DNA of 64,000 bases from an uncultured Spirochaetota bacterium (GCA_963745235.1 CAVUXE010000035.1:224001-288000); one strand, 5' to 3'; positions 6,852 to 39,724 are shown, counted from the first letter of the stretch. A program made the numbers and translations. The notes: a model not told the origin generated them from the letters alone.

Positions 6852-7579
6852 TGCCGGGTGCAGTCATCGACTACGAAATAGAGAAGAAGAAGAGTACGAC
6901 GGGAATAATCGTTCAGAAGCTCCTGGAACTGATCCGCGTTCGCAGTCTGAAGCCGGGGGATAAGCTTCCAACCGAGAGGGAGCTTTCGAAACTGATGAAA
7001 GTAAGCAGGCCGTCCTTGAGGGAGGCGCTGAAATCACTGGAAATGATGAGTATCATCAGAATTCGACAGGGCTCGGGCGCTTTCGTGAACAAACTGGAGC
7101 CCGAAAGCGTCGTCGAACATCTCGACATAGTTTTCACCCTGGATGAGACGCTCTACCGCGATCTCTACAAGGCTCGAAGGGTTCTGGAGTCGGCGATTGC
7201 GGGGATGGCCGCCGAACTGATCACTGACGAGGAGCTCGTCGAAATCGAATCGAACATCACAAAAGCCGCGCGAGCCGTTAGAAAGACCCACGAGTTCTTC
7301 GAGCTCGATCTTCAGCTCCATAGTTTGATCCTGAAAGCGTCGAGAAACCGGATCCTTCCCGTATTCATCCAATCTATCAACAAGCTCAACTTGATGATGC
7401 GCGAAAAGACGAACAGGTATCTCAAAATCAGGCAGTCATCCATCCGAGATCATCAGAACATCCTGGAAACCTTGCGGGAGAGGAATCCGGAAAAGGCCGC
7501 GCGGGCAATGGAAGAACACCTGTTCAACGTCGAGAGGGGATATTATGGCCTCGTCAAGGAAGGAGCCAGGAAAAAGTGA
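6851..7579 (+). CDS. FadR/GntR family transcriptional regulator
   Basis: PGDKLPTERELSKLMKVSRPSLREAL plus FCD domain; TAATG overlap. Confidence 0.93.
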   Translation: MPGAVIDYEIEKKKSTTGIIVQKLLELIRVRSLKPGDKLPTERELSKLMKVSRPSLREALKSLEMMSIIRIRQGSGAFVNKLEPESVVEHLDIVFTLDETLYRDLYKARRVLESAIAGMAAELITDEELVEIESNITKAARAVRKTHEFFELDLQLHSLILKASRNRILPVFIQSINKLNLMMREKTNRYLKIRQSSIRDHQNILETLRERNPEKAARAMEEHLFNVERGYYGLVKEGARKK

Positions 7580-8523
7580 ATGACACTTTCTTTGTAACTG
7601 GCGCGACGGGGTGCATCGGAGGCTGGGTTGTCAAGAACCTCGTCGAATCAGGAAGCGAGGTGTACGTGCTGGCACGGAGTGGAAGCCTGGAGAAACTGAA
7701 GCTTATCATGCCGGCAGACGAGATATCCAAGGTGCACGTCATACGCGGAGATATCGGCGATGCCGAGCTACTCAAGGAATGTGTCGCGAAAAACAAAATT
7801 GAACTCATAATCCACCTGGCGGCGATGCAGCTGCCTTTCTGCCGTGCAGAGCCGGGGCGCGGCGCTCGTGTGAACGTCGAAGGGACCATCAATGTCTTCG
7901 AGGCTGCAAAGAATGCCGGAATTCGATCGCTCGTCTATTCAAGCAGCACCGCAGTATACGGGAGAATGGACGAGTACGCGGAAATCTGCGTCGAGCATGG
8001 CGCGCGGCTGATTCCGCATTCCCTCTATGGTGTGTATAAGCAGGCGAACGAGTGGAGCGCAAGAGTCTATTTTGATTCGGACGGCATCTCCAGCATTGGC
8101 ATAAGGCCCTACGTCGTATACGGACCCTTGCGAGACAAAGGCATAACTTCCACGCCCACTCTCGCAATGAAGGCGGCTGTCGAGCATGAACGGTACGAGA
8201 TATCGTACGGTGGCGAGTTCAATTTTCAGTATGTGGACGACACGGCGAAAGCGTTCATTCGCGCTGCGCGCGCGGATCACGAGGGGGCGGATACCTATAA
8301 CCTGGGCGGAGCCGCCATCGATATGGGCGATGTGATACAAGCCATTGAGACCGCTGAGCCGCGGGCCAAAGACCTCATTACGTACGTCGATGCGCCACTT
8401 CCGTTCCCCAGGAGAGCGAGCAACGAAGAGCTTGAAAAAATCATTGGACCCGTTTGTCCGACGGCGCTTGTTGATGGTGTAAGAAAGAGTATGGAAATCT
8501 TCAGGCGAAACGCTGGCGTGTAG
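7576..8523 (+). CDS. NAD-dependent epimerase/dehydratase
   Basis: VTGATGCIG, IIHLAA, YGVYK, YGP. Confidence 0.9.
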   Translation: MNDTFFVTGATGCIGGWVVKNLVESGSEVYVLARSGSLEKLKLIMPADEISKVHVIRGDIGDAELLKECVAKNKIELIIHLAAMQLPFCRAEPGRGARVNVEGTINVFEAAKNAGIRSLVYSSSTAVYGRMDEYAEICVEHGARLIPHSLYGVYKQANEWSARVYFDSDGISSIGIRPYVVYGPLRDKGITSTPTLAMKAAVEHERYEISYGGEFNFQYVDDTAKAFIRAARADHEGADTYNLGGAAIDMGDVIQAIETAEPRAKDLITYVDAPLPFPRRASNEELEKIIGPVCPTALVDGVRKSMEIFRRNAGV

Positions 8524-9824
8524 AAGCAAAGCGGTCCTTCGGGTTCCGTGCGCTCAGTGGCGCAAACGGACCTTTCAGGGCAGCCCACCTCGGGTGATGA
8601 CGGCGCGGATCTCGTCGGAGATCTACGGCGTCACCCACCTGTTTCCCGCCTTTGGTTCTTCCCCGATGGTTCACGACCTCCTTGATGGCCTGATACATCA
8701 GAAAGAAGGGCCTGGTCTGAGAATCGGTCTGGTCGATCGTCCCTGCCAGATACAGGTCGGAGGCATCGCAGTAGAACAGGAAGGAACCCGTCGAACCTGA
8801 ATGGCCCCACAATGGCGGCATCCGCATCAATGTGCGCATGGGGCGCGGGAAGCTGAAGAGCATCGTGCCCAAGCCGTATTCGAGCGGAAAGCGCCATTTG
8901 CGCCAGGCGTGCATCTGCCCGAGGCTGTTTCGGCTGACGACTCGTCCCTCGTTCAGGGCCTTCAGGAAGACGATCATCTCTTCGGCCGTCGATACAATTC
9001 CTCCGTCGGCCCAGTATGATCCGTTGGAGCGAACCTTTGTGATGTTCGTGTTCTTGGAGAACACCTCCGCCGGGCAGCGCCGACGGCAGGACCTGATCTC
9101 CGCCGTAGCCGACGAGGTAGGTGTGCTTCAGACCAAGCGGTTGGAAGATGAGCTGCCCATACGCGGCCTGGACGGACGTGCCTGCAACTGCCTCGATAAT
9201 CTTCCCCAGAAGCTGGAAGTTGGTGTCCGAATAGAAAGTTCTCTCGCCAGGAGGGAACCTGGGCTTGAGGTCCTTTTTCGCTCGCTCGATCGTCTGATCA
9301 ACAGACCAGCGGCGGTCGGGGTTCTCCACGAAGATCTCGAACAGGCTCTTGCCGTCCGCGCCTTTCTGGTCGTAATAGTCCGCGATCCCCGACGAGTGCG
9401 ACAGGAGTTGCCTGATCGTGATCTGGGTCGAGTAGTCCTGACCCTTGTAGACGTGGATGCCCTGCACGAGCTCCTTCGGAAGATACTTTGCCATCGGATC
9501 GTCGAGTGCGAGCAGGCCCTGCTCACAAAGACGCATGACGATCGCGGCCGTGTACAGCTTGGTGATGCTCGCGATGTAGATGGGCGTGTCCTTCGTCATA
9601 GGCGCCTGGCCCGTCGCCATCCCCGACGCGCCTGACCACTCAAACGAGCCGTCGCCATTCGCAATCGTGAGAGCGCAGTTCTTTATTCCGCTGCCATCCT
9701 TGACCTGCCGCGCGACAAGCGATCGGAGTCCATCATCCAGGCTCGCGGACGCCTTGGAGCAGGCGGCCGTCATCGCGAGTGCCGCGGCGATCAGGATCAT
9801 CCCTGCGACTTTCCAGACTTTCAT
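8501..9824 (-). CDS. Serine hydrolase (beta-lactamase/D-peptidase class), probable lipoprotein, frameshift at ~9073
   Basis: Lipobox MTAAC, SITK, LLSHSSG, YSDTN; WGHSG lies in the downstream frame. The 3' end is uncertain. Confidence 0.82.
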
Positions 9825-9921
9825 TCCGCCACCCTCCAAAGCTTCCTTCCAAGACCTTTCGCATCGACAGGCCAAAGGCGAGAGCCAAGCTTTGCGCTTG
9901 GCCCTCCGTATTGCAGAGCGC

Positions 9922-10797
9922 CTAGTTCAGCCAGGTAATTTGAGGTTTTCTTCTCGGAAGCGTCCTGTGGTAAGTCACTTTCGGATAGCCTATTGCCAGG
10001 ACAGCCTGTGGGGCGCTCCCCTCTGGAACGCCAAGGCTGTCTCGCAACGACGTATTCCTGTCGAGCGCGAACTTCATGAAGCCCATCTGACAGGTGGCAA
10101 GACCGATTCGTCGGGCGGCGAGTTCTACGTTGTACAGGGCATGAATCGCGTTGTCTCGCGCCGAGCCATCGCTCTTCGGAGTGAGCGCGATCGCGACCGC
10201 AGGAGCTCGGAAGAAGATCGGTTCGTCCCCCGCGTCCTCGCGTGTCTTGAGCGTTGCAAGCTTCAGGGCGAATCCCTTCACCGCGGCGACATACTCCCGC
10301 CCTCTTGATGCGCGGAAGAACAGTTGAACCAGCGGGTTTCTCAGGAATCGCGACATCTTCGTGAGGAACAGCACCGTTCGCTTGCTCAGATCTTGAATCG
10401 TTTGCGGGTTGTCGACCACAAGCCAGTCGACGTTTTGGCTGTTGCTGCCAGTCGGGGCATACCTGCCGACTTCGAGAAGATCCCGTAAGGTCTCGCGCGG
10501 AATCGCGCTATTGCGAAAGGCGCGGGTAGATCGTCTTTCTTGAAACAATCCGACCAGGCTCTGGTAGCTCGGAAGAACTTCGAAGTCGATAGGCGGGCAA
10601 AGTGCAAGTGGATACTCGCTGTGGTTGATCGCGCCAACAGGGCACGCAGCAACGCAATGACCACACTTCCAACAGGAGTTGGACGCGGCCTGGGCGACGT
10701 TCTCTTCCGAGAGCTTGTACACGTGGGCGATGCACACGCGGCTGCATGCCCCGCACCCGTTGCAGATCTCCTTGTCGACGGCTATCTGAACCATCAC
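9922..10797 (-). CDS. Nitroreductase with N-terminal 2x[4Fe-4S] ferredoxin domain
   Basis: CNGCGACSRVC, CWKCGHCVAACP, RRSTRAF, APTGSNSQ, IGYP. Confidence 0.9.
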   Translation of the reverse strand: MMVQIAVDKEICNGCGACSRVCIAHVYKLSEENVAQAASNSCWKCGHCVAACPVGAINHSEYPLALCPPIDFEVLPSYQSLVGLFQERRSTRAFRNSAIPRETLRDLLEVGRYAPTGSNSQNVDWLVVDNPQTIQDLSKRTVLFLTKMSRFLRNPLVQLFFRASRGREYVAAVKGFALKLATLKTREDAGDEPIFFRAPAVAIALTPKSDGSARDNAIHALYNVELAARRIGLATCQMGFMKFALDRNTSLRDSLGVPEGSAPQAVLAIGYPKVTYHRTLPRRKPQITWLN

Positions 10798-10889
10798 GTC
10801 CCTCCCGAATCGGTTCGCTTGTGAACACAACAGCCCGCGCAGCGACGTCAGGCGGTCCAAACGCGCCGCTGGGCAGGCTCCGTCAGACT

Positions 10890-11246
10890 CTACCTGACCT
10901 CGGCAAGGGCCTTCTGGTAGTCTCCCATTCTCCGCTGAAGTTCTTCTCCGACGAACGCGTCGATAACTCCAAAGTTGGGCACCAGCAGGGCGACACGGAT
11001 GTTTCGGCTCTCGAATTCCGGATCCATCTTTATCCTGGCCAGCTTGTCGCGGTCTCCGTGAACCAACAGGAAGCCACTCAAATCGCCGCCGATGTAGTCG
11101 AGGAATACGGCCTCGAAACTGTCGATCATTCGCTCTTGTTGTTTCCGCTTCCAGTACTCGGTGGCCTCGGCAAACGCCTTCACGGCCTTTTCTGCGAGGG
11201 CGGGCGTTGGGAAGCCCCAACGGATGAAAAGGGCACCTTTTGCCAT
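10890..11246 (-). CDS. Hypothetical protein (118 aa)
   Basis: Strong SD AGAGGAGG and globular composition; family not recognised. Confidence 0.7.
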   Translation of the reverse strand: MAKGALFIRWGFPTPALAEKAVKAFAEATEYWKRKQQERMIDSFEAVFLDYIGGDLSGFLLVHGDRDKLARIKMDPEFESRNIRVALLVPNFGVIDAFVGEELQRRMGDYQKALAEVR

Positions 11247-11437
11247 AGCGTTCCTCCTCTGAAGGGTGACCGCCTGAGGTCAACTATCCGGCGTCTCGAA
11301 ACTGCTGTCAAGGAATTCCTGAAGGGGAGTCTCGCCCTCGCGAAGCTACCCACGATGCCGCGCGACGGATGCGACTATCCAGCAGATATGCGCGGCGAGA
11401 AGCGGCAGTAGGACTGAATGCGATCGTTGACCTGAAC

Positions 11438-22188: not shown

Positions 22189-22926
22189 CTATGCCTTTCG
22201 AGCCTTTGACCGCAGCCTCTTCTTGGGTGTCGCTGCCCTCTTTCGCGCGGCGGGGCGTACCGGCTTCGGAGACGCCAGCTTTTTCAGCTTCTTCTCGAGT
22301 GAACCCGAATATTCCTCCAGATGCAGGAGGACATTGAACACGTCCTCGAGCGCCCGGTCGTAGAGCTCGCGGGCGCGAGCGGGATTGGCTCTTGTCAGCT
22401 CCTTGACGTCGTGGAAGGCGACAACAGTGTTGTCCTCCGCGGCAACGATGTCCGCTGGCCTGCTTTTCTGGTGAAAAATGGCTGCCGAGCCGGCCATGGA
22501 TCCCTGCCGGTACTTGAGGCCGGGGAGTCCCGCGTTCTGGGCGGACCCGCGTACTATTTCGCAGGCCACCGCGATGCCCTCTCCCTTGTCGAGGATAACG
22601 TCTCCACGATTGAAAGTGCGTGTGTCGCCCGCGGCCTCCGCGCCCTCCACGGGCTGAGTGAACACCGAGCCGGATGTCAGGCCTCCGAGGCGCTCGTAGG
22701 ATCCTGAGACCTTGAAGATCTCCGGGTTCGCAAGCTGGTGCTTTCTGCCGTGCAGTGCGTCGTGCTTTATGAATGCCATGTTTTTGGCTATTTTCAAGGC
22801 TTCCGAGTCCACGTCCGCCTCGGTGACGCCCATGAAATTTTCCTTGACGATAAACTCCGACGCAAAGGTGCACCCGGGTTCCCGGCACCTGATCTTGTAT
22901 ACAGCTTCCTTGAGCCTGAAGGACAT
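22189..22926 (-). CDS. Cyclic-nucleotide-binding (CAP_ED-like) domain protein with Cys/His N-terminal domain and basic tail
   Basis: FNRGDVILDKGE...IVRG...RPADIVA resembles a cNMP barrel; SD AGGAGG. Confidence 0.7.
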   Translation of the reverse strand: MSFRLKEAVYKIRCREPGCTFASEFIVKENFMGVTEADVDSEALKIAKNMAFIKHDALHGRKHQLANPEIFKVSGSYERLGGLTSGSVFTQPVEGAEAAGDTRTFNRGDVILDKGEGIAVACEIVRGSAQNAGLPGLKYRQGSMAGSAAIFHQKSRPADIVAAEDNTVVAFHDVKELTRANPARARELYDRALEDVFNVLLHLEEYSGSLEKKLKKLASPKPVRPAARKRAATPKKRLRSKARKA

Positions 22927-23041: not shown

Positions 23042-23987
23042 TTATCGCGCGCGGATGGCGTAGGGAAGCTGCCCGTGTATGGTGCCGGCAGAAGGATCCG
23101 CGCTGAACCGCCACAGTCGCACGGCCTCCACCACAGCTGCGTCGACCTCGTTGTATCCGGACGACGCTTCCACGTTGACGTCCCTGAGGAGCCCATCCGG
23201 GGTGAGCGTGAAAGTGACCAGGACGGTGAGACTGAGACCCTCCTTGCTCACCCACTGCGGGATCTTTGGCTGCGGAGACGCGAGGAGCTTGCGGGCCTTC
23301 GCTGCGCCCGGCTGGTCCCACTGGAAGCGCAGGTCACCCGTGCCGCCTCCACCCTGGCCCGCGTTTCCGCCTCCCCCGCCACCGCCTCCGGAGGCGGCTT
23401 CCTCCTGGCCTCCGGATCCCTGTGCCCCTGCCGCAAGAGACTTGTCCAGGGAGCCCAGGTCCAGCGCGCCCTTCGCGGGAGCCTGCCCTCCGCCTTCCAC
23501 CAGCACCCCGCGCGCGGGCGCGCCCGTCGGGGCTCCTCCGCCGGTTGCGGCGGCGCCCCCTTCCTGCGAGGCTTTCACGCGCGGAAACACAGGCTCCTGC
23601 ACGGGCGATGTCGCCGGCTGAGCGCCGCCGGCCTGGAAGTTGCTCGGTCCGGCCGCTCGAAAAGCGGGCCCGCTGGGTTGGGTCGGCCCCGTGCTCGTGC
23701 TCTGGCGAGGCGTCGGAATCACGAAACCCTGGCTGCTGCCGCCTCGGGACTGCGTCGTGGCGGTTGCCGCAACCTGGGGTTGTCCGGGCAGGAAGAGCGG
23801 GGCCGCTCAGCGTGCCCGGCACGAGGTCCACGCTCACCGGCGCGAGGTTCGACGGGCTCTGCAGGCGGACAATCGCAAACAATACGAAAACAAGAATGTG
23901 CAGGAGCACGGCGACGAGGAACGCCGCAAGGAGGCGTCTGGAATCGCTGTGCTGAGGGTCCATCATCTGCTGTGCTGCGCTGCTCAT
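23042..23987 (-). CDS. TonB family energy transducer, frameshift at ~23790
   Basis: TM segment with His (AVLLHILVF), Pro/Gly-rich linker, TonB_C (VTFTLTPDG...SSGYNEVDAAVVEAVRLWRF). Confidence 0.85.
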
Positions 23988-23998
23988 CTTCAGCTCTC

Positions 23999-25646
23999 TT
24001 AGAAGCTCAATCTCAGGCTCGCCACCACGCGGAACCCGGGCTCCGCGTAGGGGTACAGGCTCGGCCCAAAGCGATCACCGCCCAGCAACGGCCACAACAG
24101 GTCATACAAGTCCAGACGGAGCTGGGCGGGCTCCGACACTCGCACGAATCCTCCAACGTCCAGCTCAGGGAGCTGGGCGGACGGAGGCAGCCCGGTGAGC
24201 ATTGTCACGGCGACCTGTCCCCCGTACGCTCCCGTGGTCTCCATGGCAATCGCCTCCGCCGTTATCTCGTCCACCGCAACGAAGGACGGCCTGTCCATGA
24301 GCTCTCGATTCCAGCTGCCGCTCAACGTGACGCCCGGAGTGATTGTCCACCGAACACCTGCGTCGCCGGTGAGCCGGTTGGCGGCCCGCTGGTCGACCAG
24401 GAAGAGACCCGTGGTGGATCCGGATCCGCCAGGCACGGGATAGAAACTGCCTCCCGCAAAGGCATCCGATGTCAGCATGTTGGTGCTGCTCATGAACGAG
24501 AGCCCGGCCCTCACGCTGAACGATTCAGCGAGGGCAAGCTGGACACTCGCATCTGAGAACCATCCGCTGTCATCCACGAGGTTCACAGGAATAAGGTACG
24601 GGTTGAGGGCAAGAATGTCACCTGCATCATAGGTGACCACCTTGTAGCCAAAGGAGGCATCGATGGTGAGGGCCGAAAAGGGCGCCCCGGTCACATGGAT
24701 CGAAAAAGGAAGCAAGCTGTTGCCCTGGGAGCTCAGGAACCATGCGATGGAGCCCTCCAGGAGGAGCGACCCGGGGAAATCCAGGGCCATCGAAAGTCCC
24801 GTGTTCAGCCGCTGAACCTGGTCGTCACTGCCGGTGTACAGGTGCGCCAGGCGGTAACTGTAGTCGCCGGATATCCCGGCGGTGAATATCCCGGAGTGCG
24901 CGCTCGCCGACAGGTGCGATGCCCCCTTGTACTCGCTTGCCTGGCCCGGACCCGCTACGCGTGCCGGCGAGCGTCAAAGAGTCGGTGAGCCCCGTGACGG
25001 ATCCGTCCACGGTCAGCCAGTCCAGGGGCTGCACGCTCAGTGTGGCGGTGCCGTCAAGGTTGCGGCCCAGCCGATAGAAGTAGTCGGTGCTCTGGTTCTG
25101 CAGTCCCATCTCTTTTTCAGCGTAGCTTCCCTGGAAGCCTCCGTTGAAAGGCCCGAGTCGGCCGGACACATTTCCCGCTATCGAGTCGGTCCGCGTGTCA
25201 AAGCCAGATCCCTGTGCCTGCCCCGAGATGCCATCCGCCGTATCGTGGGCAAACGAAAGGCTGGCCTGGGCGTTCTGGCCGGTCGTGGTCACGTTGAGGT
25301 CACCGACCACCCGGTTCTGCGATCCGATTCCAAGGGTTGCCTGCGTTGCCAGCGGGCGGGGAGGGCTGGCAGGTCCTCCCAGGGGATCGGCGCCTTCCAC
25401 TGCCAGGCTTCGGACCGGCGGCTCCACGGCCAGCTCCGGCGCTGGCGGCAGAAGGACGTCCGTTTTCACGATGACCGGGGCCTCGGCTGGCGGCAGCATG
25501 GACTGGACGTTTTCCACGCTCAGGTCCTTGATGTCGAGGGTCACCTCCGGCAGGACAAGCTCGGGGGCCGAGGGCTGGTCCGCCGCCGCGGCGAAAGCGG
25601 GGAGGAGGACCATCATGACGAAGGAGAATCCGCTCAGTCTGCTCAT
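23999..25646 (-). CDS. Outer-membrane beta-barrel protein (~550 aa), frameshift at ~24960
   Basis: Signal peptide, LVLPEVTL near the N-terminus, alternating amphipathic strands, C-terminal beta-signal GFRVVASLRLSF. One continuous ORF after removing one base. Confidence 0.7.
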
Positions 25647-28553
25647 TTCCCCGCCTCCAGCAGCTTCCTGGCCTTGACCGTCCACGCCGACGAGGGGAAG
25701 CTGTCTGTCATCTTCTTCACCAGCGCCTGCACCTGATCCGGCCGCTCCCCAAGCTTCATCATTTCGGCAGCCCGGTAAAGGGCGGATGCCGAAAAATCCT
25801 GATCCCCTGCTCCCGTGGCAGCGGCCGCTACAAACCTCTTTGCCGCTTCCATCAGGTCACTCCTGCGATAGAAGTATTCACCTTCGAGGTACTGGGCGTT
25901 TGCCGCCATGGCCCCGCTTGCCTGCGCGGCAACCTGCTGGAGCATCTGATACCCCTCTTCGACTTTCTTGTCTCCGCTGTAGATGTACAGCCGTGCGAGG
26001 TCGACAGTTGCCTGCAGGCGGGCATCGCCGCTGGAATGCGCGATGCGCGTCTTGAGGTCAGCCTCCGTGGCGTCAAGGCCTTGGACCTGGTAGCGCAGCT
26101 TTTCCGCCGCGATGTCCGCCTTCGCGAGGCGGGCCTCGTTCGGGTAGTCGGAAATGAACCGGGTGTAGAGATCCAGGGCATGCTTGAGGTCATTGGCGGC
26201 CGCGTAGACCTCGGCAGCCTTCCGCAGCGAGGCGGCACGGAAGGGGCTCGTTCGATACGTGTTGGCAAGCTGCTCCCAGAGGAGCGCAGCGTCGAACTTC
26301 GCTCCGGTGTTGCTGGCCGCTTCGCCGCCCCAGTACAGGGCGGCATCATGCAACCGCCCGTTCGGGTACTTGCGCCGGTAATCCGTGAACGCGGTTGCCG
26401 CGGCCGCGTAGTCGTGCTGGTTGAACATCGTTTCCGCCAGTCGATACGTCGCTTCTTCCGCAAGGGGGCTTGCGGGGAACTGACTCACCAGGTCCCGGTA
26501 AGCACTCACAGCGCCTGAGGGTGACCCGGAAAGCGCCTGGACGCCCGCGTAGTCGAAGAGGGCGCTGTCCGCAAAGGAAGATCGCGGAGAGGAGTTGATG
26601 ATTCCCTGCAGGGCGTTGGAGGCTTCCGTGAGCCTTTTTGCATTCATCAGGCTCTTTGCGTAAAGGTAGAAATCCTTGTCCGCCGAGCTCTTGTCCCCTT
26701 CCGCCTGGGCAGCCCGGGAGAAATAGTCCGCTGCCTTGTCGAAGTCCCCGAGGTTGTAATGGCTCCACCCCGCCAGGAAGAGGATCTTCGGGGTGAGGGC
26801 ATGGAGCGGATATGCCGCGGCCAGGCCGTCAGCGGTTGCCGCGCTGTTTTTGAAATCTGCCGTTTTCGAATATGACCACGCCAGGTAGTACCCCAGGTAC
26901 GGCACGATCATTCCGAGCCCGTTCGCCTGGGCCGAGTTCGTGTCAATTTTTCCGAGAGTCTGGACGGCGCCGGCGTAATCCTTCACGGCTACCTGGCTGA
27001 GCCCGAGCAGATACGAGGCAAGGATGCCGTTCCGCGGGCTCCTGGACGCCGCGGGAGCAATGGCCGCCGGGGCTCCCTGCTGAACCGCCTGGTACTGCTT
27101 TGCCAGGAACTGCATCTCCAGAAGGTCCACGGTGGCGTCCACGTCCTGGGGATCAAGCCGGGCGTACTCCTGCAGCGCGCCGGCAGCCCCGGCGAAGTCC
27201 CCCTTCTTCCTGTCGATCTCCGCCTGCAGGCGAAGGAAATCCGGCCGGGTGCTCCCCGCCGTCGGGAGATACCTGGAGACCAGGGCCGCGCTCTGATCCA
27301 GCTTGCCTTCCTGAAGCTGCACATCGGCAAGAAGCGCCGCAGCGCGCGAGGTGTCGGGAGATTTCGGATGCTCACTCAGGAAACGCTGAAGGATGCTTTC
27401 TGCGAGCACAAGCTTACCGGAGTCACGCGCAAGGGCCGCCAATGCAAGCACCGCCGCCTCCGAGGCGGATCCTGGCTGGGTTATGTAATCCTGCAGGAGG
27501 GCCTTTGCCCCGGCGCTGTCCTTTCGGTCCTGCATGATCCTGGCGAGGTAGATCGGCACCGTGCTGTCAACCTTGTAGGAGGCGCGAAGGGCCCAGGCCC
27601 TCCGGAGGTAGAGGGACGCCGCGTCAAGGTTTCCCTTCTTGTAGTATTCGACGCCGATCCCGGCCCAGATGTCCATCATGACTTGCGGCGTCCCGGGCAA
27701 AGTGGCTTTCCATTTCCTGCCCGAGTGATTCCATCCGGGGCAGGTCCGTCTTCGACTCCGCCGCCGCGAACAGCCGGCGGTAGGCGGCCACCGATATGTC
27801 TGGTCGTGCGTTCCGCAGGTCCATGTAGATGGCAAGAGCGTCCGCCTGGCGGTTGTTCTCCCAAAGGCCCTCCGCCCGGTTCCAGAGAAACTCCTGGCTC
27901 AGATCTGCCGGAAGAGACGCAAGGTCAGCGCTTGCGGCGAGCTGCTCCAGGGCGTCCCAGGACTTCTCCTTTGCGAGCAGGGAGGACAGCAGGACGAGAG
28001 CCGGCCCCGCGGCTTCGGACCGCGGATAGGCTTTCAGGAGCTGGCGTGCGGCATCCTCCGCTTCGGGCAGTTTCTGCAACGCCTCCAGGTCCAGGGACTT
28101 GCAGAGAAGCGCCCGGGGGACCAGCTCTGGATCCTTGCCCGTGGTCAGGTATTCATTGAGGGAAACCAGGCTCGGTGTGTACCGGGAGAGCCGGTAAAGC
28201 GACAACCCCTGCCACAAGGGGACTGCGTCGAGGTAGCGCGTCCAGCGATAGCGCAGGGAAATCTCAGTCAACAGGTCTGTTGCCGCCTGGTAGTTGCCCA
28301 GCTGATAGAGGCATACCGCGCGGCGGTACTGCACGTCGGCCAGGAGGTCAGAGGAAGGATACTGTTGAAGGAACTCGTCGTACTGGACGAGTGCCGCCGT
28401 GTAGCTCTTGTTGAGAAAGCGGCTTTCTGCTTCGGTGAACAGCTCGCTGTCGGCCGGAATTGCCCACAGGGATGCTGGTCCCAGGAAAAGCACGAGAATT
28501 GCCGCGTACCGCAGACGCCCGGCAGCAGCCCTGGTCCGCACGTTGTTTTCCAT
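25643..28553 (-). CDS. Large periplasmic TPR protein (~970 aa, CpoB/BamD-like repeats), frameshift at ~27696
   Basis: Signal peptide and repeated F/Y-P-x-S TPR motifs (QYPSSDL, YPRSEA, HPKSPD, FPASPL, YPNGRL, FPSSAW). Confidence 0.88.
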
Positions 28554-28734
28554 ACTCCTGAAGGTATCACAGGCGTGCAAGCGCTCAAGTCATCCATGAA
28601 AGGAAAACGGGGTCGAATTTCCATGACAGTCCCTTCCTGGTGTCGTTGAGATTCGACATGCGAATCATCTTTCGCATTACTGACCGGAGTTGCCCGCAAT
28701 CCGTAGAGTTTGACACACGTGGCGTGGTGCGGCG

Positions 28735-28763
28735 TTGAAAATGCCATGACATCGCTATACAGT
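28735..28763 (+). promoter_or_regulatory. Putative sigma70 promoter in the divergent intergenic region
   Basis: TTGAAA-17nt-TACAGT, then SD GGGAGG and ATG 28784. Confidence 0.45.
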
Positions 28764-28783
28764 ATTGCCGTCGGGAGGGCCCC

Positions 28784-31700
28784 ATGAGCAAGAAGTTCCA
28801 TCGCGTGATCATCGTCGCCCTGTTCGCCGTCGCAGCGGCGGCCGCCCACGCAGAGAGCGGCTTTCTTGATTTCTATTCTCCCCAGTTCCTCGCCGGCATG
28901 GGCGGGACGGCGAACCTCAATGCGCCGCAGGGAACGGTCCTCAATCCCGCGGTCAGCGCGGGAAAACAGAGGGTGACCCTGGACTTGAGCTATCTCGCAC
29001 TGACGGGGGTCAGCCCTCTCAACTGGAGCGGGAACTTCATCAACGCCGGGATCACAATCCCCTCCGCGGCCGGAGTCTTCTCCACCACGGGGCGGTTCAC
29101 CAATGCGAACTTTTCAGGATCGCCCGATTGGGGCCCCATGGGCGGAGTGACCCTGTCGTTCGCCAAGGATCTTTTCCCGGATTTCTATGTCGGTGCCGGG
29201 CTGGGTTTCGAGTTCGGCAGCGACTGGGGTCTTGGCCTTGACCTCGGCTTTCTCAATCTTGCGGGTGACATTGGCTTTCTCAGGGATTTCCGGTGGGGGA
29301 TCGCATTCCTGAACATCGGGAAAGGCTACAGCGACTCAAGCTCGCCGGGGTCGCTCAGCAACCCGCCGGCGTTCACGCCGGCCATCGGCGCCCATTTCTC
29401 CCTTGTGAAGACAGACCCCGTGGTGCTTTCTTTCAGTCCCGACCTCAGCTTCCCTTCGCTGGTCGACATGAGGGCCACTGTTGGCGGGGACATCCTGCTC
29501 TTCAAAGTCGTGACGCTGAGCGGGGCGTACAGCTACGACCTTCGCGAAGCGGCGGGAATTGAGCCGGCGCGCTCACTTCCGTTCAGCTTCGGCATCTCGT
29601 TCACTTTCTCCACCAACATCCAGCAGAACATCGGGGCGCTCAACGCCACGGAGCGGGGTTGGAACAGGAGCGATGTCAGCACGACCATCGCTGCTGTGCC
29701 CCTGCAAAACAGCGTGTGGGGGTTCGGCGCCGGAGTCAACGTTCCCCTTGGCTCCATCGTGAAGACTCCTCCCGCCATATCCCTGGAAACCTCGGGTGAG
29801 AAGTACATCTCCCCGACTCTCGTGGGTGGAAAAGTGGATCTTGTCCTTCCCCTTTCCATCACCTCAAAGCGATACGTGAAGGGGTTCCGGCTTGTCATCC
29901 AGGATTCCTCAGGGAACCCGGTTCGCACAATCCAGAACAAGGAGGACAGGCCTGAGAACAGGGACCTGGGGAACCTCCTGAAGCGCCTTGTCTATGTGAA
30001 GCAGGGAATCCCCATTCCTCCTTCCGTCAGGTGGGATGGGACCTCGGACAAGGGCACGGTGGTTCCTGACGGCACGTACCGCTATTACGTCGAGGCGTGG
30101 GACGACAACGGCAACATCGGCAAAACGCCGCTGGGGACGGCCATTGTGAAGACCGTGCCGCCCAGGATAACGGTGAGCGCGCCGTACGTGATTTTCTCCC
30201 CAACAGGGGAAGGGACAAAGGGGAATCTCCCCATCCATCAAACAGGCTCGAAGGAAGACATGTGGGCAGGGACAATCAGGGATGCGGCGGGAGCGACTGT
30301 CCGCACCCTCACCTGGAAGGATTCCGCGCCGCCTGACTTCACATGGGACGGCAAGAACGACAAGGGCATCCTGGCGCCAGACGGCGTGTACAGCTACCAC
30401 GTGACGGCCACGGACAGGGCGCTGAACGTGGGCTCGGCGGATCTGAACAACATCATCATCAACACCCAGCCGACACCCATCCAACTCTCCATCGACAACG
30501 CCTACTTCTCCCCGGGCACGGGCAGCCCCAAGAAGGATGTTACTTTCACTCTGGGCGTTCCCGTCACGACCGACATCGACCAGTGGAGCCTCGCAATCAC
30601 GGACGCCGGCGGGACCACGCAGAGGACCTTCTCAGAAAAGTCGAAAGTCCCCTCGACGGTCGTCTGGGACGGGCGTGATGACGGCGGCAAGCAGCTTCCT
30701 GACGGCGGTTACAAGGCCAGGCTCGCAGTCGTGTACCTGAACGGCCACAACCCGACGGCAGACTCCCCGCTCATCACCATCAAGACGACACCGCCCACCG
30801 CCGCCGCAACAGCGGAATACCAGGTCTTCTCCCCAACGGGCGACAGTGAGCGCAACACGGTCAAGATCCACCAGGACACCTCGGAAGAGACGTCCTGGAC
30901 AGGGACTTTCAAGGACGAAAAGGGCAAGGACGTGAGGATCCTCACGTGGCGCGGAACGGCTGACCCCGTCTTCCAGTGGGACGGCCGCACGGACGACGGC
31001 ACGCTCCTTCCTGACGGGGAGTACACCTACGCTCTTTCCGCCACCGACCGGGCGGGGAACACCGGGGCCTCCAAGCCGATCACCCTGAGAATCGACACCC
31101 AGAAAAAGCCGGTCCGAGTTTCCACGGATGTCGCATACTTCTCACCCTTCGGCGGCGGAACAAGGACAAGGATAAAGATAATCCCGTCCCTTGCCGTGAC
31201 AACGGGCATAGAGAGCTTCGTGGTTCGGGTGAAAAACTCCAAGGGTGATGTCGTGCGGACGTTCAAGGGCTCCAACCGGCCGCCGGAGGAGATTTCATGG
31301 GCGGGCATAGACGACGCAGGGGCCAGGGCGCCTGACGGACAGTATGGGGCGGAGCTGGAAGTCGCGTATTCCAACGGCACGCATCCCACGGCGCAAAGCA
31401 ATCCCTTCTTCATCGACAACCATTTCCCGCAGATCGACCTCAGCGCTGACGCCACTCTGTTCTCTCCGGACGGCACGAGCCGCCTGCAGTCAATCAGCAT
31501 CAAGCAGTCTTCCAGCAACGAAGACCTCTGGGAAGGGGAGATACGAAACGCCAAGAATGAGCGTGTCCGGGGATGGTTCTGGAAGGGCATGGCCGTTGAT
31601 TTTGCCTGGGACGGCAAGGACGACAACGGCAACATTGCCCTGACGGCACGTACACCTATATCGTCAAATCCCAGACAAAGGCCGGAAACTCGACCGTCAA

Positions 31701-32790
31701 GGAGTTGAAGGGGATTCAGATCGACACCCGGCCCACGCCCATCTTCATTACCGCGTCTGCCACAGGGTTCTCTCCAACGCCCGGCGGCACGCCGAGCTCC
31801 GTCAACTTCACGCCGATCGTTCAGCTGGCGGAAGGGATCAGGTCCTGGAAGCTTTCCATGGTGAGCTCCGCCGGTACATCGGTCAGGGATTTCACGGGAG
31901 CGGCGCCTGTGCCGCAGTCCGTTGCGTGGGACGGCAAGGACGCGGCCGGCGCCCTGGCGCCGGACGGCTCGTACGTTGCTGACTTCCAGGTGGACTACTT
32001 CAAGGGAAATCTGCCGGACACCCGGACCGCGCCGTTCGTGCTGAACGCCAGTCCGCCGAATGTGGATCTCTCCGTCGGGCCGCTTCCCTTTGCGCCCGAC
32101 AATACGGGCTACCACAACGAGCTCAACATAGGCATCAAGGTCAACGACCCGAGCCCGATTGACACCTGGAGCATTCAGATCCTCGACCCGGAGAATCATC
32201 CTTTCGCTTCTTTCTCCGGAAAAGGCGCTCCGTCAGAGAACATCATCTGGAACGGCCTCTCGGATACGGGAGAGCTCGTGCAGTCAGCGGAGGACTATCC
32301 GCTCACCTTCACCATCAAGGATGTGCTCGGCAACACGGCCACCTACACGAAGACGATCCCGGTTGACATCCTGGTCATCCGCGACGGGGACAACCTCAAG
32401 ATCAGGATCCCCAGCATCACGTTCCAGGCGAACACGGCTGACTTTACGCATGTGGAGCCGGAGAAGGCCGCGAAGAACATCGCGACAATCTCCCGGCTCG
32501 CGGAGATCTTCAAGAAATACAGCCAGTACAAGATCACGATCCAGGGACACGCGAACCTCGTGAACTTCGACAACCCCGCGGCTGCCAAGAAGGAGCAGGA
32601 GCAGGAGCTGATCCCGCTGTCGAAGGCAAGGGCTGAGGCCATCAGGACGGCCCTGATTGCGCAGGGGATCGCGGCGGCGCGCATCTCCACCGTGGGAATC
32701 GGCGGCGCCGAGCCCGTGGTGCCGTTCTCGGATCTCGACAACCGGTGGAAGAACCGCCGCGTGGAGTTCATCCTCGTTCGTAACGAGTAA
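28784..32790 (+). CDS. ~1335-aa envelope protein: FadL/PorV-like N-terminal barrel + 8 FlgD-Ig repeats + OmpA C-terminal domain, frameshift at ~31640
   Basis: GMGG...LNPA barrel-family motif; eight (F/I)SP...WDG..D.G...PDG.Y-type repeats; OmpA domain ITIQGHA...LSKARAEAI...NRRVEF. Adding one C at 31638-31640 joins the two ORFs. Confidence 0.85.
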
Positions 32791-32809
32791 GGCAAGAAGG
32801 AGAAACCTG

Positions 32810-33430
32810 ATGTTTGCAGGCAAAACGCTGTGGCAGATCTTCGCGTCCGGCGGAGTGACAATGTATGTGCTCCTTTTCTGCTCGCTGCTTTCCCTCGCCG
32901 TCATCATTGATCGCCTCTGGACATACTGGAGCATGATGAAGGTGAGCCGCGCCGGGTTCATGCGTCGGATCCAGGCGATGATCGAGCGCAAGGACAGGGA
33001 GGGCGCCATCGAGGTCTGCCGTGAGACGCGGGCGCCTTTCGCGCGCGTGGCCATGGCGGGACTGGAGCTGCGCTCCCGCGACGAGAAGCTTCTCGCAAGC
33101 ACGCTGGAGCGGGCGGTGACCGTCCAGGCCTCCCGTCTTTCGCGGCTCACGAGCGTTGTTGGCACCATCGGGAACACAGCCGTGTATATCGGTCTCTTCG
33201 GCACGGTCCTCGGCATCATCAGGGCGTTTCGTGACATCTCCGCAATGGGGGCCGGCGGAATGGCGGTTGTCATTGGAGGAGTGGCGGAGGCGCTCATTAC
33301 CACGGCCACGGGGCTTGCAGTGGCCGTGCCTTCGGTCATCGCATACAACTACTTCGTTCGGCGCATTGACCAGTTCGTGAACGACATGGAGCTGTGCGCC
33401 TCGGAGATGACGGATCTCCTTACCCGCTGA
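32810..33430 (+). CDS. exbB: MotA/TolQ/ExbB proton-channel protein
   Basis: YIGLFGTVLGIIRAF, GVAEALITTATGLAVAVP. Confidence 0.9.
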   Translation: MFAGKTLWQIFASGGVTMYVLLFCSLLSLAVIIDRLWTYWSMMKVSRAGFMRRIQAMIERKDREGAIEVCRETRAPFARVAMAGLELRSRDEKLLASTLERAVTVQASRLSRLTSVVGTIGNTAVYIGLFGTVLGIIRAFRDISAMGAGGMAVVIGGVAEALITTATGLAVAVPSVIAYNYFVRRIDQFVNDMELCASEMTDLLTR

Positions 33431-33432
33431 CC

Positions 33433-33852
33433 ATGCGCAACCCGAGAACGCGCCACAACGGGCTGATGGCGGGGATCAACATCACCCCCTTCACGGACGT
33501 GGTGCTTGTCCTCCTCGTCATTTTCATGATCGCTACGCCGCTGATCATCCAGTCGGGGATGCGGGTGAACCTTCCCGCAACGAGCACTGCCGAGGCGCAG
33601 CCGGAAAAGAGCATCCGCATCACGATTGACTCAGCCGGCGCTGTCTACCTGGGAAAGGACAGAGTCATGTACGACGAGCTGCGCCAGCGGCTTTCACGCA
33701 TCCTGGCGCAGCAGCCTGGCTCTCCCGTCGTGGTGATGGGTGACAGGGGGCTGCGGTACGACCTGGTCATCAGGGTGCTGGACATCGCCCGTGCCGCCGG
33801 CGCGCGCAGGATGTCGCTGGGCGTCGAGGTGCGAAACGATTTGACTCCCTAA
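33433..33852 (+). CDS. exbD: ExbD/TolR protein
   Basis: INITPFTDVVLVLLVIFMI with the conserved Asp; GDRGLRY. Confidence 0.92.
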   Translation: MRNPRTRHNGLMAGINITPFTDVVLVLLVIFMIATPLIIQSGMRVNLPATSTAEAQPEKSIRITIDSAGAVYLGKDRVMYDELRQRLSRILAQQPGSPVVVMGDRGLRYDLVIRVLDIARAAGARRMSLGVEVRNDLTP

Positions 33853-33876
33853 GAGGGGCGCCGAGTACCCCCCCAA

Positions 33877-35208
33877 TTACTTGTCCGGAAGCTTGTCCGC
33901 TGGCACGCGAAGCTCGTGAGAATCCAGCCCGATGGTGCTCTTCGCTTCCCGGGCCGTGGTTGCCGGGGCTGGTTTGCGACGCGTGGCCGGGCTTGCAGGG
34001 CCCGCCTCCCCCTTCATCTGCTGGCTCCCCAGGTGGTCTCTCGTGCGGAAGAAGCGGGCCTTGGACTGCAGGACATTGGGGTTTTCGATTGTAACCTGGC
34101 GGAACTGGAAGCTGAGGTTTGGGTCATCAGTGAGGACCTCTGCAAGCTTCTGCTGCTTCTCAGAAGGGACCCTCGCCATGGCCAGGATCTCCCCGATTCC
34201 CAGCGGCAGCGTCACGGCCTTGGTGCTTCCCAGCGAGATTCGCTCTTCCAGGAGCTTGTTTTCCAGGAGCACGTACGCCCGGGTCAGCGGGTTCTCATAG
34301 AAGCTTGACTGCAGCCGTATGAAGGTGAACCAGAGTCTCTGGCTGATGGCCGTGAGAATCCTGGCGATGGTGACGGGTGATTTCTCGAAGAGGGCCGCAA
34401 GGGATTCCCGCGCAACCGGAAGAAGCTCCGTCTCACCGATGGCAATAGCGGTGGCATTTCGCGGTTTGCTCGAGACGATGGAAAGCTCGCCGAAGATGTC
34501 TCCCTCCCGCAGGATGGAAAGGAGCATCTCATCCGGCGGGGTTATCTTCAGGATCTCCACCTTCCCCGATTTGACGATGTAGAGCTCCTTGCCCGGCTCG
34601 TGCTCGCAGAAGACCAGCTGGCCGTCGGAGTACCGGCGCGCGAGCCCGCGCTGATTCAACGGCGGAGCCTTTACCCCCTTCTCTTTCAGCGCGGAGACGG
34701 CTTTCTGCGCCTCCCGGGCGTTGGGGACCGACGGAAAAAGCTGAATGTGCGCGCTCAGGGCGTGAAGGGCGTAGGCGTCCCGGCCTGAGTTGACAAAATG
34801 CATCCCCAGCTCGAACAGCCGCGCTTCCTCGTCCGAGGGCGCGGCTTTGTCCGAGGGCACGGCTACCATGTCGTCATACGCTCGAAGCTCATCCGCGAAG
34901 TAGGAGATGACGCGCGTTGCCAGCTCCGCGTTCGCCTGGACGGATTCGAGAAAGCGATCCCGCCCCAGGACCGCGCACGTGCAGTCCGTGCGGGCCACCA
35001 CTGTTTCCATGCGGGGACGCCTGCACAGGCACGATGTGAAGCCGAAGATGTCTCCCGGGCCGAGGGTGGAGCGGAATCGCTTCGCCTCCGCGAAGCCGGA
35101 GAGCTCGACCTCTCCCTTCTCGATGACAAAGACCTCTCCGCTCTCTTCCTCGGACTCGAGGTAGATGCGCGCCCCTCGCGTGTAGCTTTTCTTGGCGACT
35201 TCGCTCAC
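33877..35208 (-). CDS. Tandem cNMP-binding domain protein (Crp/Fnr-like)
   Basis: Two CAP_ED domains (GDIFGF...PRMETV; LYIVKSGKVEI...GDIFGEL...PRNATA). Confidence 0.88.
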   Translation of the reverse strand: MSEVAKKSYTRGARIYLESEEESGEVFVIEKGEVELSGFAEAKRFRSTLGPGDIFGFTSCLCRRPRMETVVARTDCTCAVLGRDRFLESVQANAELATRVISYFADELRAYDDMVAVPSDKAAPSDEEARLFELGMHFVNSGRDAYALHALSAHIQLFPSVPNAREAQKAVSALKEKGVKAPPLNQRGLARRYSDGQLVFCEHEPGKELYIVKSGKVEILKITPPDEMLLSILREGDIFGELSIVSSKPRNATAIAIGETELLPVARESLAALFEKSPVTIARILTAISQRLWFTFIRLQSSFYENPLTRAYVLLENKLLEERISLGSTKAVTLPLGIGEILAMARVPSEKQQKLAEVLTDDPNLSFQFRQVTIENPNVLQSKARFFRTRDHLGSQQMKGEAGPASPATRRKPAPATTAREAKSTIGLDSHELRVPADKLPDK

Positions 35209-38600: not shown

Positions 38601-38795
38601 ATGGTGTTACCTCTGGACCTTCTCGAGAGCTTTCAGGGCAATGTCTATGAAATGACCTGCGCGGCCATGAAGCGCAGTATTCAAATCAACCTCGCGGGTG
38701 ATGACGAGCTGGATGCGAACAAGGGGAAGATCGTCTCCACGGCCCTCAAGCAGATCCTCACGCAAAAGGTCCGGTATCGGCACCCGGAAGGCTGA
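38601..38795 (+). CDS. rpoZ: RNA polymerase omega subunit (spirochete type)
   Basis: GNVYEMTCAAMKRS...GKIVSTALKQIL; position between yicC/kinase and miaA. Confidence 0.8.
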   Translation: MVLPLDLLESFQGNVYEMTCAAMKRSIQINLAGDDELDANKGKIVSTALKQILTQKVRYRHPEG

Positions 38796-39724
38796 CAGAG
38801 TCCTTCCTCTCGTCGTCCTCTTCGGACCGACAGCCGCGGGAAAGTCCGAAATCCTTCCCTCCCTTTTCGATCAGCGCTTCGAGATCATCAACGCCGACTC
38901 CATGCAGGTGTATCGCCATCTGAACGTGGGCACCGCAAAGCCAGGCCGGGATCTCCGTGACAGGTTCCCGCACCACCTCATAGACGTGGTGGACCCGTCC
39001 CACCAGTTCAACGCCGGTGAGTTCGTGAAGGCGGCGCAGGACCTTGTCCGGCAGATCAGCGCCCGGGGGAGAGTCCCCGTGGTCTGCGGCGGCACGGCGT
39101 TCTATATCACGAGCTTCCTCTATGGCCTGCCCGGAGTCACCCAAAGGGGACCCGCGGACGCGTGAGCGGCTTCGAGAGCTTGCGCGGGTGGAAGGGCGCG
39201 ATGCTCTTGCGCGCATGCTGCGCGAACGCGACCCTGAGGCAGCGGATCGCATCCCCCCCGCGGATACCTACAGGATCACGCGGGCCCTGGAGGTTCTGGA
39301 GTCCACCGGGGAGTCAGTCTATTCTTTTCGCTGGCCACGGACCCTGCGAACTGATTTCCAGTTCCTTCTCCTGGGCCTCACGCGCGAGAGGGATGAGCTT
39401 TACCGGCGGATCGAGCAGCGAGTCGACAGGATGTTCTCCGAAGGGCTCCTGGAAGAGATCAAGGGGCTTCTGTCCATGGGGTACGGGCCGTCTGATCCTG
39501 GCATGCGCGGGATCGGGTACCGCGAGATTCTTGGCATGCGAAGCGGCTGCGCGACCCTGGCCGATGCCCGTGACCTCATCAAGCGGAACTCCCGCAGATA
39601 CGCGAAGCGCCAGCTCACGTTCTTCAAATCCGTTCGCGGCGTGATCTGGTTCGACCCGTCGGAGGCGCCGAAAATCCGAGCGGCAATAGAAGCCTTCGTC
39701 TCTCCCCTCCTCCCTGCCTATTGA
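38788..39724 (+). CDS. miaA: tRNA dimethylallyltransferase, frameshift at ~39131; start codon uncertain
   Basis: GPTAAGKS, IINADSMQVY, HHLID, GGTAFY; then RALEV, GIGYRE, RRYAKRQLTFF. Confidence 0.92.

Follow-up and report, generated by a model that had tools for sequence, protein, structure and literature searches.

A candidate Ton/Tol-type module of Spirochaetota with a predicted plug-less 22-strand barrel as its outer-membrane partner

The DNA analyzed here, which we refer to as the window, is a stretch of 64,000 nucleotides from an uncultured Spirochaetota bacterium (GCA_963745235.1, CAVUXE010000035.1:224001-288000). Between positions 23042 and 33852 it contains genes for a TonB-family energy transducer, an outer-membrane barrel, a large periplasmic protein built of tetratricopeptide repeats (TPR), an OmpA-domain protein with immunoglobulin-like (Ig) repeats (Ig-OmpA protein), and the two stator subunits ExbB and ExbD. 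We consider it somewhat probable that the TPR, barrel, ExbB, ExbD and TonB genes encode a Spirochaetota-restricted Ton/Tol-type force-transducing module, whose dedicated outer-membrane partner would be a barrel that has the fold of a TonB-dependent transporter (TBDT) and lacks the plug. Together, these parts look like a variant, seemingly undescribed, of the systems by which bacteria energise their outer membrane. A full-text search of the literature, covering main texts, found no description of the module, and the term "plugless" was met there only for engineered FpvA. The source genome consists of 104 contigs (5.85 Mb, 61% GC, completeness 85.7%, contamination 5.9%), and the host is an uncultured soil or peat spirochaete.

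Gene order was compared at 43 non-duplicate loci: the window, 17 loci chosen from 38 positive relatives, 8 chosen from the 43 positive genomes of a phylum-wide sample, and 17 loci from a contig search (26 loci, of which 9 were removed as duplicates), for which the query consisted of the 8 closer barrel rows. The TPR gene is located directly upstream of the barrel gene at 42 of the 43 loci, the exception being cut by a contig end, and the TonB gene lies downstream of the barrel gene, also at 42 of 43. At 30 loci the ExbB-ExbD pair is present between the barrel and TonB genes, resulting in a colinear operon TPR (~980 aa)-barrel (~550 aa)-ExbB-ExbD-TonB. An earlier note on this DNA had proposed a unit of six genes that included the Ig-OmpA gene. 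This has to be revised, because the conserved core consists of these five genes and the Ig-OmpA gene adjoins the module at only four loci (4/43), namely in the window and in the relatives G006, G015 and G003.

The barrel is widespread within the order. With the C-terminal half of the barrel as the query, it was found in 38 of 41 same-order relatives, the frames there being intact and 545-650 aa long. An even sample of the phylum had the barrel in 44 of 401 genomes, representing 24 of 153 genera, and several large families of the sample gave no match (0/89, 0/34 and 0/16). A profile search of 1.84 billion representative proteins yielded 523 matches at E<=1e-3, and all named matches come from Spirochaetota or Spirochaetia metagenome-assembled genomes, in which they are annotated as "hypothetical protein". 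Phylogenetic profiling, which had been proposed in the earlier note, thus supports its inference of an uncharacterised, proton-driven trans-envelope system in spirochaetes, insofar as the genes form a conserved set that includes a proton motor.

The barrel gene (23999-25646, minus strand) matches no Pfam or NCBIfam family and encodes a protein with a signal peptide, an acidic N-terminal motif and a predicted barrel. Its structure was modelled with AF2 for the orthologue of the close relative G006, which is 78-79% identical over two halves, using a 17-row alignment. The model (predicted local distance difference test score, pLDDT, of 73.4) starts with a signal helix, is disordered from residue 24 to residue 108 and has 22 strands between residues 111 and 553, without a globular plug. 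When the model was compared with the PDB using Foldseek, the top matches were all TBDTs (BtuB, E 5.3e-17, TMq 0.62). The same was observed in an independent VIA search (all-against-all alignment), in which the top 31 matches were all TBDTs with Z values of 17.9-22.9, BtuB giving a Z of 22.9 and a root-mean-square deviation of 3.3 with 397 residues aligned. The best matches outside this family were the 19-strand Mdm10/Tom40/VDAC barrels (Z 15.0-17.0), followed by FimD (14.4) and LptD (13.2); the best match to a polysaccharide secretin was 4y25 (Z 13.8).

At the sequence level this resemblance is not apparent. Neither PF00593 nor Plug (PF07715) was matched by any of 17 family members at E<=1, or by any of 90 members at E<=0.01, and the same Plug search does detect the canonical TBDT of the genome. 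The distance between the signal peptide of the barrel and the first strand is only ~75 residues, which are modelled as disordered. A profile search of the PDB with the barrel gave 0 matches, and hhalign assigned a probability of 1.8% to the alignment of the barrel with the canonical TBDT of its own genome. In one Atlas neighbour cluster of the barrel, 38% of the members contain PF00593, which we regard as a lead only. Fused, longer forms of the barrel (1058-3020 aa) were searched for and none was found, a result that carries little weight. The earlier note had stated that the locus has no canonical TonB-dependent receptor and had proposed structure prediction of the strand count and plug. The statement holds in that the plug is absent and no TBDT sequence match exists, and it fails in that the model does have the 22-strand TBDT fold; the barrel is thus not predicted to be a standard plugged TBDT.

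The LPEVTL segment of the barrel, which the earlier note had likened to a TonB box, turned out to be part of a conserved acidic motif of ~55 aa. In an alignment of 135 full-length family representatives this motif occupies positions 38-93 with almost no gaps, and contains the highly conserved residues P45 (99%), P64 (97%), L78 (90%) and P79 (91%). Its consensus is acidic and punctuated by prolines, and reads roughly EPEIVLPxVxLEIEDLSVExVEAxLP...PLP. The motif starts a few residues past the predicted signal cleavage site, i.e. at the mature N-terminus, which is the position of a TonB box. A prediction of the complex between the C-terminal domain of TonB and the N-terminal segment of the barrel gave a score of 0.00 against a mark of 0.32, and this outcome weighs neither for nor against binding.

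The gene upstream of the barrel (25643-28553, minus strand) encodes a periplasmic all-TPR protein of ~970-980 aa with CpoB/YbgF- and BamD-type TPR units, and the ATG of the barrel gene overlaps its stop codon (ATGA). The NCBIfam model tol_pal_ybgF (TIGR02795) matches this protein in four stretches with 135 bits, above the cut-off of 90.1, and with a further 52.4 bits in the N-terminal piece, and OM_YfiO gives 75.9 bits; Pfam detects TPR_6, TPR_19 and YfiO, and PRK10803 gives 61.6 bits against a cut-off of 383. Instead of a ~260-aa CpoB, the protein is an array of repeated CpoB/YbgF-type units within ~980 aa. It has a signal peptide without a lipobox cysteine.

The TonB-like protein (23042-23987, minus strand) contains an N-terminal transmembrane helix with a histidine, a long linker rich in Pro, Gly and Ala, and a C-terminal TonB_C domain (Pfam, 1.8e-9). 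The NCBIfam model tonB_Cterm gives 52.8 bits, above its cut-off of 27.1, against just 23.8 bits for tolA_full. Both the transmembrane histidine and the C-terminal domain are conserved in an alignment of 18 orthologues. The stator subunits are encoded at 32810-33430 (ExbB/TolQ-type, 206 aa, MotA_ExbB 1.3e-30) and 33433-33852 (ExbD/TolR-type, 139 aa, ExbD 8.5e-29), both on the plus strand, and the transmembrane aspartate of ExbD is located in the segment PFTDVVLVLL. Hence, the three domains that define a Ton complex, MotA_ExbB, ExbD and TonB_C, are all present, together with the transmembrane His of TonB and the transmembrane Asp of ExbD. With the NCBIfam equivalog models, ExbB of the window scores higher with TolQ (121.3 bits, cut-off 221) than with exbB (90.6 bits, cut-off 206.2), and ExbD higher with TolR (94.7 bits, cut-off 127.3) than with ExbD PRK11267 (82.6 bits, cut-off 216), all four scores being below the respective cut-offs. 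The module orthologues behave likewise: among the NCBIfam models, TolQ scores highest with 8 of 8 ExbB orthologues (82-105 bits, with at most 70 bits for the ExbB models) and TolR with 8 of 8 ExbD orthologues (56-73 bits), again far below the cut-offs.

The earlier note had called the system self-contained, which the rest of the genome does not fully support. Besides ExbB of the window, one other MotA/ExbB-family gene is present, on contig C29 beside an OmpA/MotB-type open reading frame (ORF). Judged from this neighbour, the C29 gene is probably a flagellar stator gene, which would leave ExbB of the window as the only non-flagellar family member found. The genome contains three TonB_C genes, and contig C54 carries its only canonical TBDT (674 aa, Plug 94 bits plus PF00593) with its own TonB and no exbBD there. 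Since this TBDT-TonB pair has no second ExbBD in the genome, the motor of the window is probably shared, and we infer that the module stator is the general Ton/Tol stator of the cell, which would explain how exbBD could leave the operon. The same counts are seen in the closed genomes G311 and G317, which belong to other families: each has the module ExbB, one MotA-sized match of ~260 aa, and one Plug gene with a TonB gene ~2.3 kb away.

For 13 of the 41 relatives, the search for Plug domains gave no match. All 13 carry the barrel, and seven of them are at least 94% complete. They include the single-contig genomes G030 and G037, both with the full operon and with a second ExbB-TonB cluster in addition to the module; no MotA-sized third MotA_ExbB match and no Plug-domain protein was found in these two genomes. 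As they contain a TonB system without a plugged receptor, the plug-less barrel encoded next to TonB is the obvious client.

Two observations were made on the other TonB genes of the window's genome. The TBDT locus on C54 (L056:7684-14942) also contains a 719-aa ORF without a Pfam match and a gene for a CobW-family GTPase, a gene content that suggests metal-related uptake. On contig C99, a gene for a 258-aa TonB_C protein (2.4e-7; L058:6082-6858, plus strand) has a stop codon that overlaps the start of a gene for a 1473-aa TamB-family protein (6855-11276, plus strand). A TonB-like protein that is apparently coupled to TamB is unusual.

Signals for regulation by metals or B12, which the earlier note had associated with a standard plugged TBDT, were not detected at the module. 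A search with Rfam returned no family except two tRNAs, and none in the 230-bp intergenic region between the divergent genes (28554-28783), so that there is no sign of a riboswitch. No Fur-box match with at most 3 mismatches was found, the consensus used being that of E. coli, which may not apply to the host. The intergenic region contains one sigma-70-like match (28735-28763, plus strand), and the numbers of promoter-like and terminator-like sites do not exceed those in shuffled sequences. Other neighbours of the module across the loci are housekeeping genes, which encode RNase Y, YmdB, GerM-domain proteins, Der and a HAD hydrolase. Together with this neighbourhood, the absence of signals for metals or B12 points to a constitutive envelope task rather than to the regulated scavenging of a single nutrient.

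According to the interpretation that we favour, the ExbB-ExbD stator would convert proton flow into force on the TonB-family arm. Just as TonB captures a TonB box, the C-terminal domain of this arm may capture the conserved acidic motif that lies at the N-terminus of the mature barrel and would form a strand. A pull on the segment tethered in this way would then open or remodel the 22-strand channel, which lacks a plug domain. The ~980-aa CpoB/BamD-type TPR protein could be located beneath the barrel and act there, on the periplasmic side, as a scaffold or lid. As cargo we propose a component of the envelope and not a nutrient that is scavenged.

The module proposed here is related to, and distinct from, a Ton system such as that of E. 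coli BtuB. Both have MotA_ExbB, ExbD and TonB_C domains with the transmembrane His and Asp, and a barrel of the 22-strand TBDT fold, which is predicted in the case of the module; the barrel of the module has a conserved strand-like motif at the mature N-terminus, which is the place of a TonB box. The module differs in that its barrel has no plug and matches neither PF00593 nor PF07715, that the barrel has an obligate ~980-aa TPR operon partner, and that the motor is nearer to the TolQR models. In addition, receptor and motor are encoded together in one single-copy operon in a housekeeping context, and the motif is acidic and extends over ~55 aa, in contrast to the seven residues of a TonB box.

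Several points weigh against this interpretation. Because the barrel has no sequence similarity to TBDTs, the shared fold does not prove TonB-dependent gating, and it may be convergent or very ancient. The fold was moreover obtained from an orthologue with 78-79% identity and a 17-row alignment, and not from the broken frame in the window. The N-terminal segment, which is modelled as disordered, could instead dock on the TPR protein; in passages of PMC11761067, the N-termini of GltA and GltB are predicted to dock on GltC. A motor that leans towards TolQ and TolR, combined with a TPR protein that passes the CpoB/YbgF model, favours a Tol-like, non-transport role. Finally, the motor count rests on a genome that is 85.7% complete, and the second MotA_ExbB match in G311 and G317 was called MotA by its size alone.

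The last of these arguments but one leads to the alternative that survives best, which is that the module is an analogue of Tol-Pal (TolQ-TolR-TolA-TolB-Pal-CpoB). It would consist of a TolQR-like stator, a TolA-like arm, a CpoB-like TPR protein and a barrel that acts as an anchor and not as a channel. Such an analogue would either tether the outer membrane or constrict it, and would also coordinate the remodelling of the wall during division. We consider this possible, though unlikely. The best-model assignments of the stator to TolQ and TolR, both in the window and in the orthologues, agree with it, as does the score of the TPR protein with tol_pal_ybgF; the gene order stator-stator-transducer corresponds to Q-R-A, and the housekeeping context fits and looks constitutive, as in Tol-Pal. 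On the other hand, the TolQ and TolR scores are far under the equivalog cut-offs, the C-terminal domain of the arm is of the TonB type, the TPR protein is roughly four times as large as CpoB, and a 22-strand barrel, which takes the outer-membrane place in the module, far exceeds what an anchor needs. A further argument against it is that the module was found in only 24 of the 153 genera in the phylum sample. In favour of the analogue, it is argued in passages of PMC12204202 that TolA goes back to a paralogue of TonB and that the ancestral CpoB was a lipoprotein of the outer membrane.

The distribution of the Tol components can be read in both directions. The earlier note had reported that TolB and a Pal lipoprotein are missing, and this is borne out: neither is present at any of the 43 loci, which makes the module different from Tol-Pal itself, and no TolB_N match was found in the 85.7%-complete genome of the window, which counts in favour of the analogue. 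The only OmpA domain at the locus belongs to the ~1340-aa Ig-OmpA protein, whose signal peptide has no lipobox cysteine, so that this protein does not qualify as Pal; six other OmpA-domain ORFs are present in the genome. In the phylum sample, TolB_N matches occur in 43 of the 401 genomes. They overlap with the 44 barrel-positive genomes in a single one (G215), which also speaks for the analogue, but the matches are weak (37 bits at best) and multi-copy and so cannot be called TolB, and related genomes are not independent.

An additional gene is relevant to the Tol-Pal alternative. At 18 of the 43 loci, a gene for an unannotated secreted protein of ~430-480 aa is located directly upstream of the TPR gene (for example L018:8882-10312, plus strand). 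In the genome of the window it is found on the same contig at a distance of ~200 kb (C35:20509-21930). The protein contains an invariant NCSGF...H motif, and 931 homologues were collected, none of which has a Pfam domain. The motif could belong to a Cys-His hydrolase, which we count in favour of the analogue. The protein gave no match in a PDB profile search. Its model, built from a 4-row alignment, has a pLDDT of 48.8, and the best VIA matches (Z 5.3, and 5.2 for LolA/LolB-like chains) are within noise.

We next consider the layout of the locus in the window. Domain searches confirmed the six genes at the positions and strands given in the earlier note, in two arms around the 230-bp intergenic region: the TPR, barrel and TonB genes are transcribed leftward, and the Ig-OmpA, ExbB and ExbD genes rightward, so that the motor is indeed split over the two arms. 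All six genes are intact in G006, where, in the order TonB, barrel, TPR, Ig-OmpA, ExbB and ExbD, they encode proteins of 338, 554, 992, 1340, 206 and 140-153 aa. The Ig-OmpA protein (28784-32790, plus strand, ~1340 aa) matches Pfam FlgD_ig (7.7e-46) and OmpA (5.7e-12), and has a signal peptide and an N-terminal domain of ~330 aa; in the intact G006 orthologue, eight FlgD-type Ig repeats are followed by a C-terminal OmpA domain. The N-terminal 345 aa, for which Pfam gave no match, resemble FadL/PorV/TraF_2-type barrels by language-model features only (0.93-0.95), which is a lead. The model Lsa66_OmpA (NF053608) gives 209 and 81.6 bits for the two pieces of the protein, below the cut-off of 700; an Lsa66-type OmpA adhesin has FlgD_ig and OmpA domains in common with the window protein, which has the barrel-like N-terminal domain in addition.

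The six genes might be regarded as one machine, in which the Ig-OmpA protein is an integral, Pal-like component and the divergent two-arm layout is native. A Pal-like role would be compatible with its combination of an outer-membrane domain and a peptidoglycan-binding OmpA domain. In the window, G006, G015 and G003, exbB-exbD follow the Ig-OmpA gene on the same strand at ~20-40 nt, and in G020 the barrel and Ig-OmpA genes are divergently adjacent by coordinates. Both families are near-universal in the order (barrel 38/41, Ig-OmpA 40/41), but the co-presence of two order-core genes says nothing about a functional link, and the Ig-OmpA gene is usually hundreds of kb away from the module; in G017, G018, G030 and G037 the distance is 0.3 to 2.6 Mb. 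In other genomes of the same genus, exbBD is present alone among unrelated genes, such as those for an amino-acid permease or H+-PPase. This, together with the rare adjacency of the Ig-OmpA gene (4/43), indicates that the two-arm layout is a late rearrangement, and we regard the six-gene machine as quite improbable.

Judged from gene order, the ancestral form appears to be the single operon TPR-barrel-ExbB-ExbD-TonB, and the Ig-OmpA protein appears to be an outer-membrane to peptidoglycan tether that is a recent neighbour outside the conserved module. The exbBD pair would have left the operon within the genus and, in a subclade, landed behind the gene for the Ig-OmpA tether; the probable reason is that other TonB paralogues depend on this motor as well. 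Genes for cyclic-nucleotide-binding proteins are located on both flanks of the locus, at 33877-35208 (minus strand, 2.6e-37) and at 22189-22926 (minus strand, a weak match of 1.6e-3), and these flanks are also present in G006, G015 and G003.

It is highly improbable that the module is a surface motor of the Agl-Glt/Nfs kind, in which a TolQR-type motor, an arm, a TPR protein and a barrel would move an adhesin or a polymer along the cell surface. Spirochaetes swim by periplasmic flagella, and the suggestion of surface motility in the earlier note found no support: NCBIfam matches to gliding_GltC and to the AgmX/PglI tail exist, but they are weak (18.5 bits against a cut-off of 450 for gliding_GltC, and 19 against 40 for myxo_SS_tail). 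The loci contain one TolQ and one TolR and not the three motor genes AglR, AglQ and AglS, and an FHA domain, GltD/E-type partners and an adhesin gene are all absent from them. The parts are nevertheless similar to those of the Myxococcus apparatus as described in passages of PMC3169522 and PMC11761067, with a TolQR-type motor, a TonB-C-like transducer (such domains are present in GltG/J), one or more TPR scaffolds, of which GltC is located under the barrels, and barrels with extended periplasmic N-termini that become ordered on GltC. The module differs in having a single TPR protein, no cytoplasmic platform, and a single large barrel in place of the small porins GltA, GltB and GltH. A "core complex" outside gliders is left without an assigned function in passages of PMC3169522; the main text of that paper, like that of PMC12204202, does not mention spirochaetes.

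Other known systems also combine a TPR protein with a barrel or a motor. In the exopolysaccharide exporters AlgK/AlgE, PgaA and BcsC, a long periplasmic TPR scaffold is associated with a plug-less outer-membrane barrel. The barrels of these exporters have 16-18 strands and no TonB/ExbBD motor, and the module differs from them by its 22 strands and its motor. The TtpD protein of Vibrio is a TPR protein. The Vibrio TonB2 system with TtpB, TtpC and TtpD (PMC6957404) resembles the module in that a TonB-ExbBD operon has extra obligatory periplasmic or TPR partners; it serves ordinary plugged TBDTs for iron uptake and has no barrel in the operon, which sets it apart.

In the window, the frames of four of the genes are broken within 10.8 kb, with one break each near 23786 (TonB), at 24960 (barrel), at 27695 (TPR) and at 31638 (Ig-OmpA). 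The region was aligned with near-identical contigs from four public soil or peat runs belonging to four studies. Relative to the window, the public contigs omit one base at 23786 (2 of 2 covering runs), at 24960 (3 of 3) and at 27695 (3 of 3), and have an extra T at 31638 (3 of 3). Correction of the frameshifts in silico, as had been proposed in the earlier note, extended the longest open frames of the TonB, barrel, TPR and Ig-OmpA genes from 254, 343, 751 and 989 aa to 318, 618, 981 and 1350 aa, respectively, and these corrected frames match the intact orthologue lengths of 338, 554, 992 and 1340 aa. As the public contigs differ by one nucleotide at each break and the corrected frames match the orthologues, the four breaks are assembly errors and the genes are intact in nature. 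The breaks at 27695 and 31638 are located in C/G runs, and at 38776-39703 (plus strand), outside the locus, a 323-aa ORF of G006 matches the window in two frames, which points to another frameshift and fits a generally indel-prone assembly. The least probable of the alternatives, that the four frame breaks mark a decaying remnant of a system that is being lost in this host, is rejected, since every public contig that covers a break is without it, the four genes are reopened by the in silico indels, their orthologues are intact in G006, and breaks in C/G runs together with a further frameshifted gene in the window are typical of assembly indel errors.

Two other differences between the window and the public contigs were observed. 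At 33867, all four runs have an extra C in the short spacer between the stop codon of exbD and that of the convergent gene for a cyclic-nucleotide-binding protein. In addition, one contig of the X1 run joins positions 31332 and 33107, thereby skipping 1774 bases, and has 32 other letters in between, with only 21 letters on the shorter side; this contig probably comes from a different organism or was misjoined within the Ig repeats.

A more far-reaching interpretation, in which the Ton/Tol family of periplasmic force transducers has a third branch, represented by the module, is offered tentatively, as we find it rather doubtful. A TolQR-like motor would act on a 22-strand barrel without a plug, which would be closed in trans by its N-terminal tether and by the giant CpoB-like TPR protein. 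In spirochaetes without TolB-Pal, such a proton-driven device might export or insert a bulky envelope component, or couple the outer membrane to the wall at division, and the barrel could reflect a pre-plug state that gave rise to the TBDTs.

The module provides a concrete, conserved and testable candidate for two questions: by what means spirochaetes, in the absence of Tol-Pal and Braun's lipoprotein, retain and constrict an outer membrane that is only loosely attached, and what TonB systems do in genomes without a plugged receptor. It consists of a motor, a TPR scaffold and a dedicated barrel that is predicted to have the TBDT fold and no plug, and current annotation lists all of these as "hypothetical". 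Several complete genomes carry the operon, and a culturable host for genetics may therefore exist. More generally, the module bears on the gating of 22-strand barrels and on the evolution of the TBDTs and of the split between Tol and Ton.

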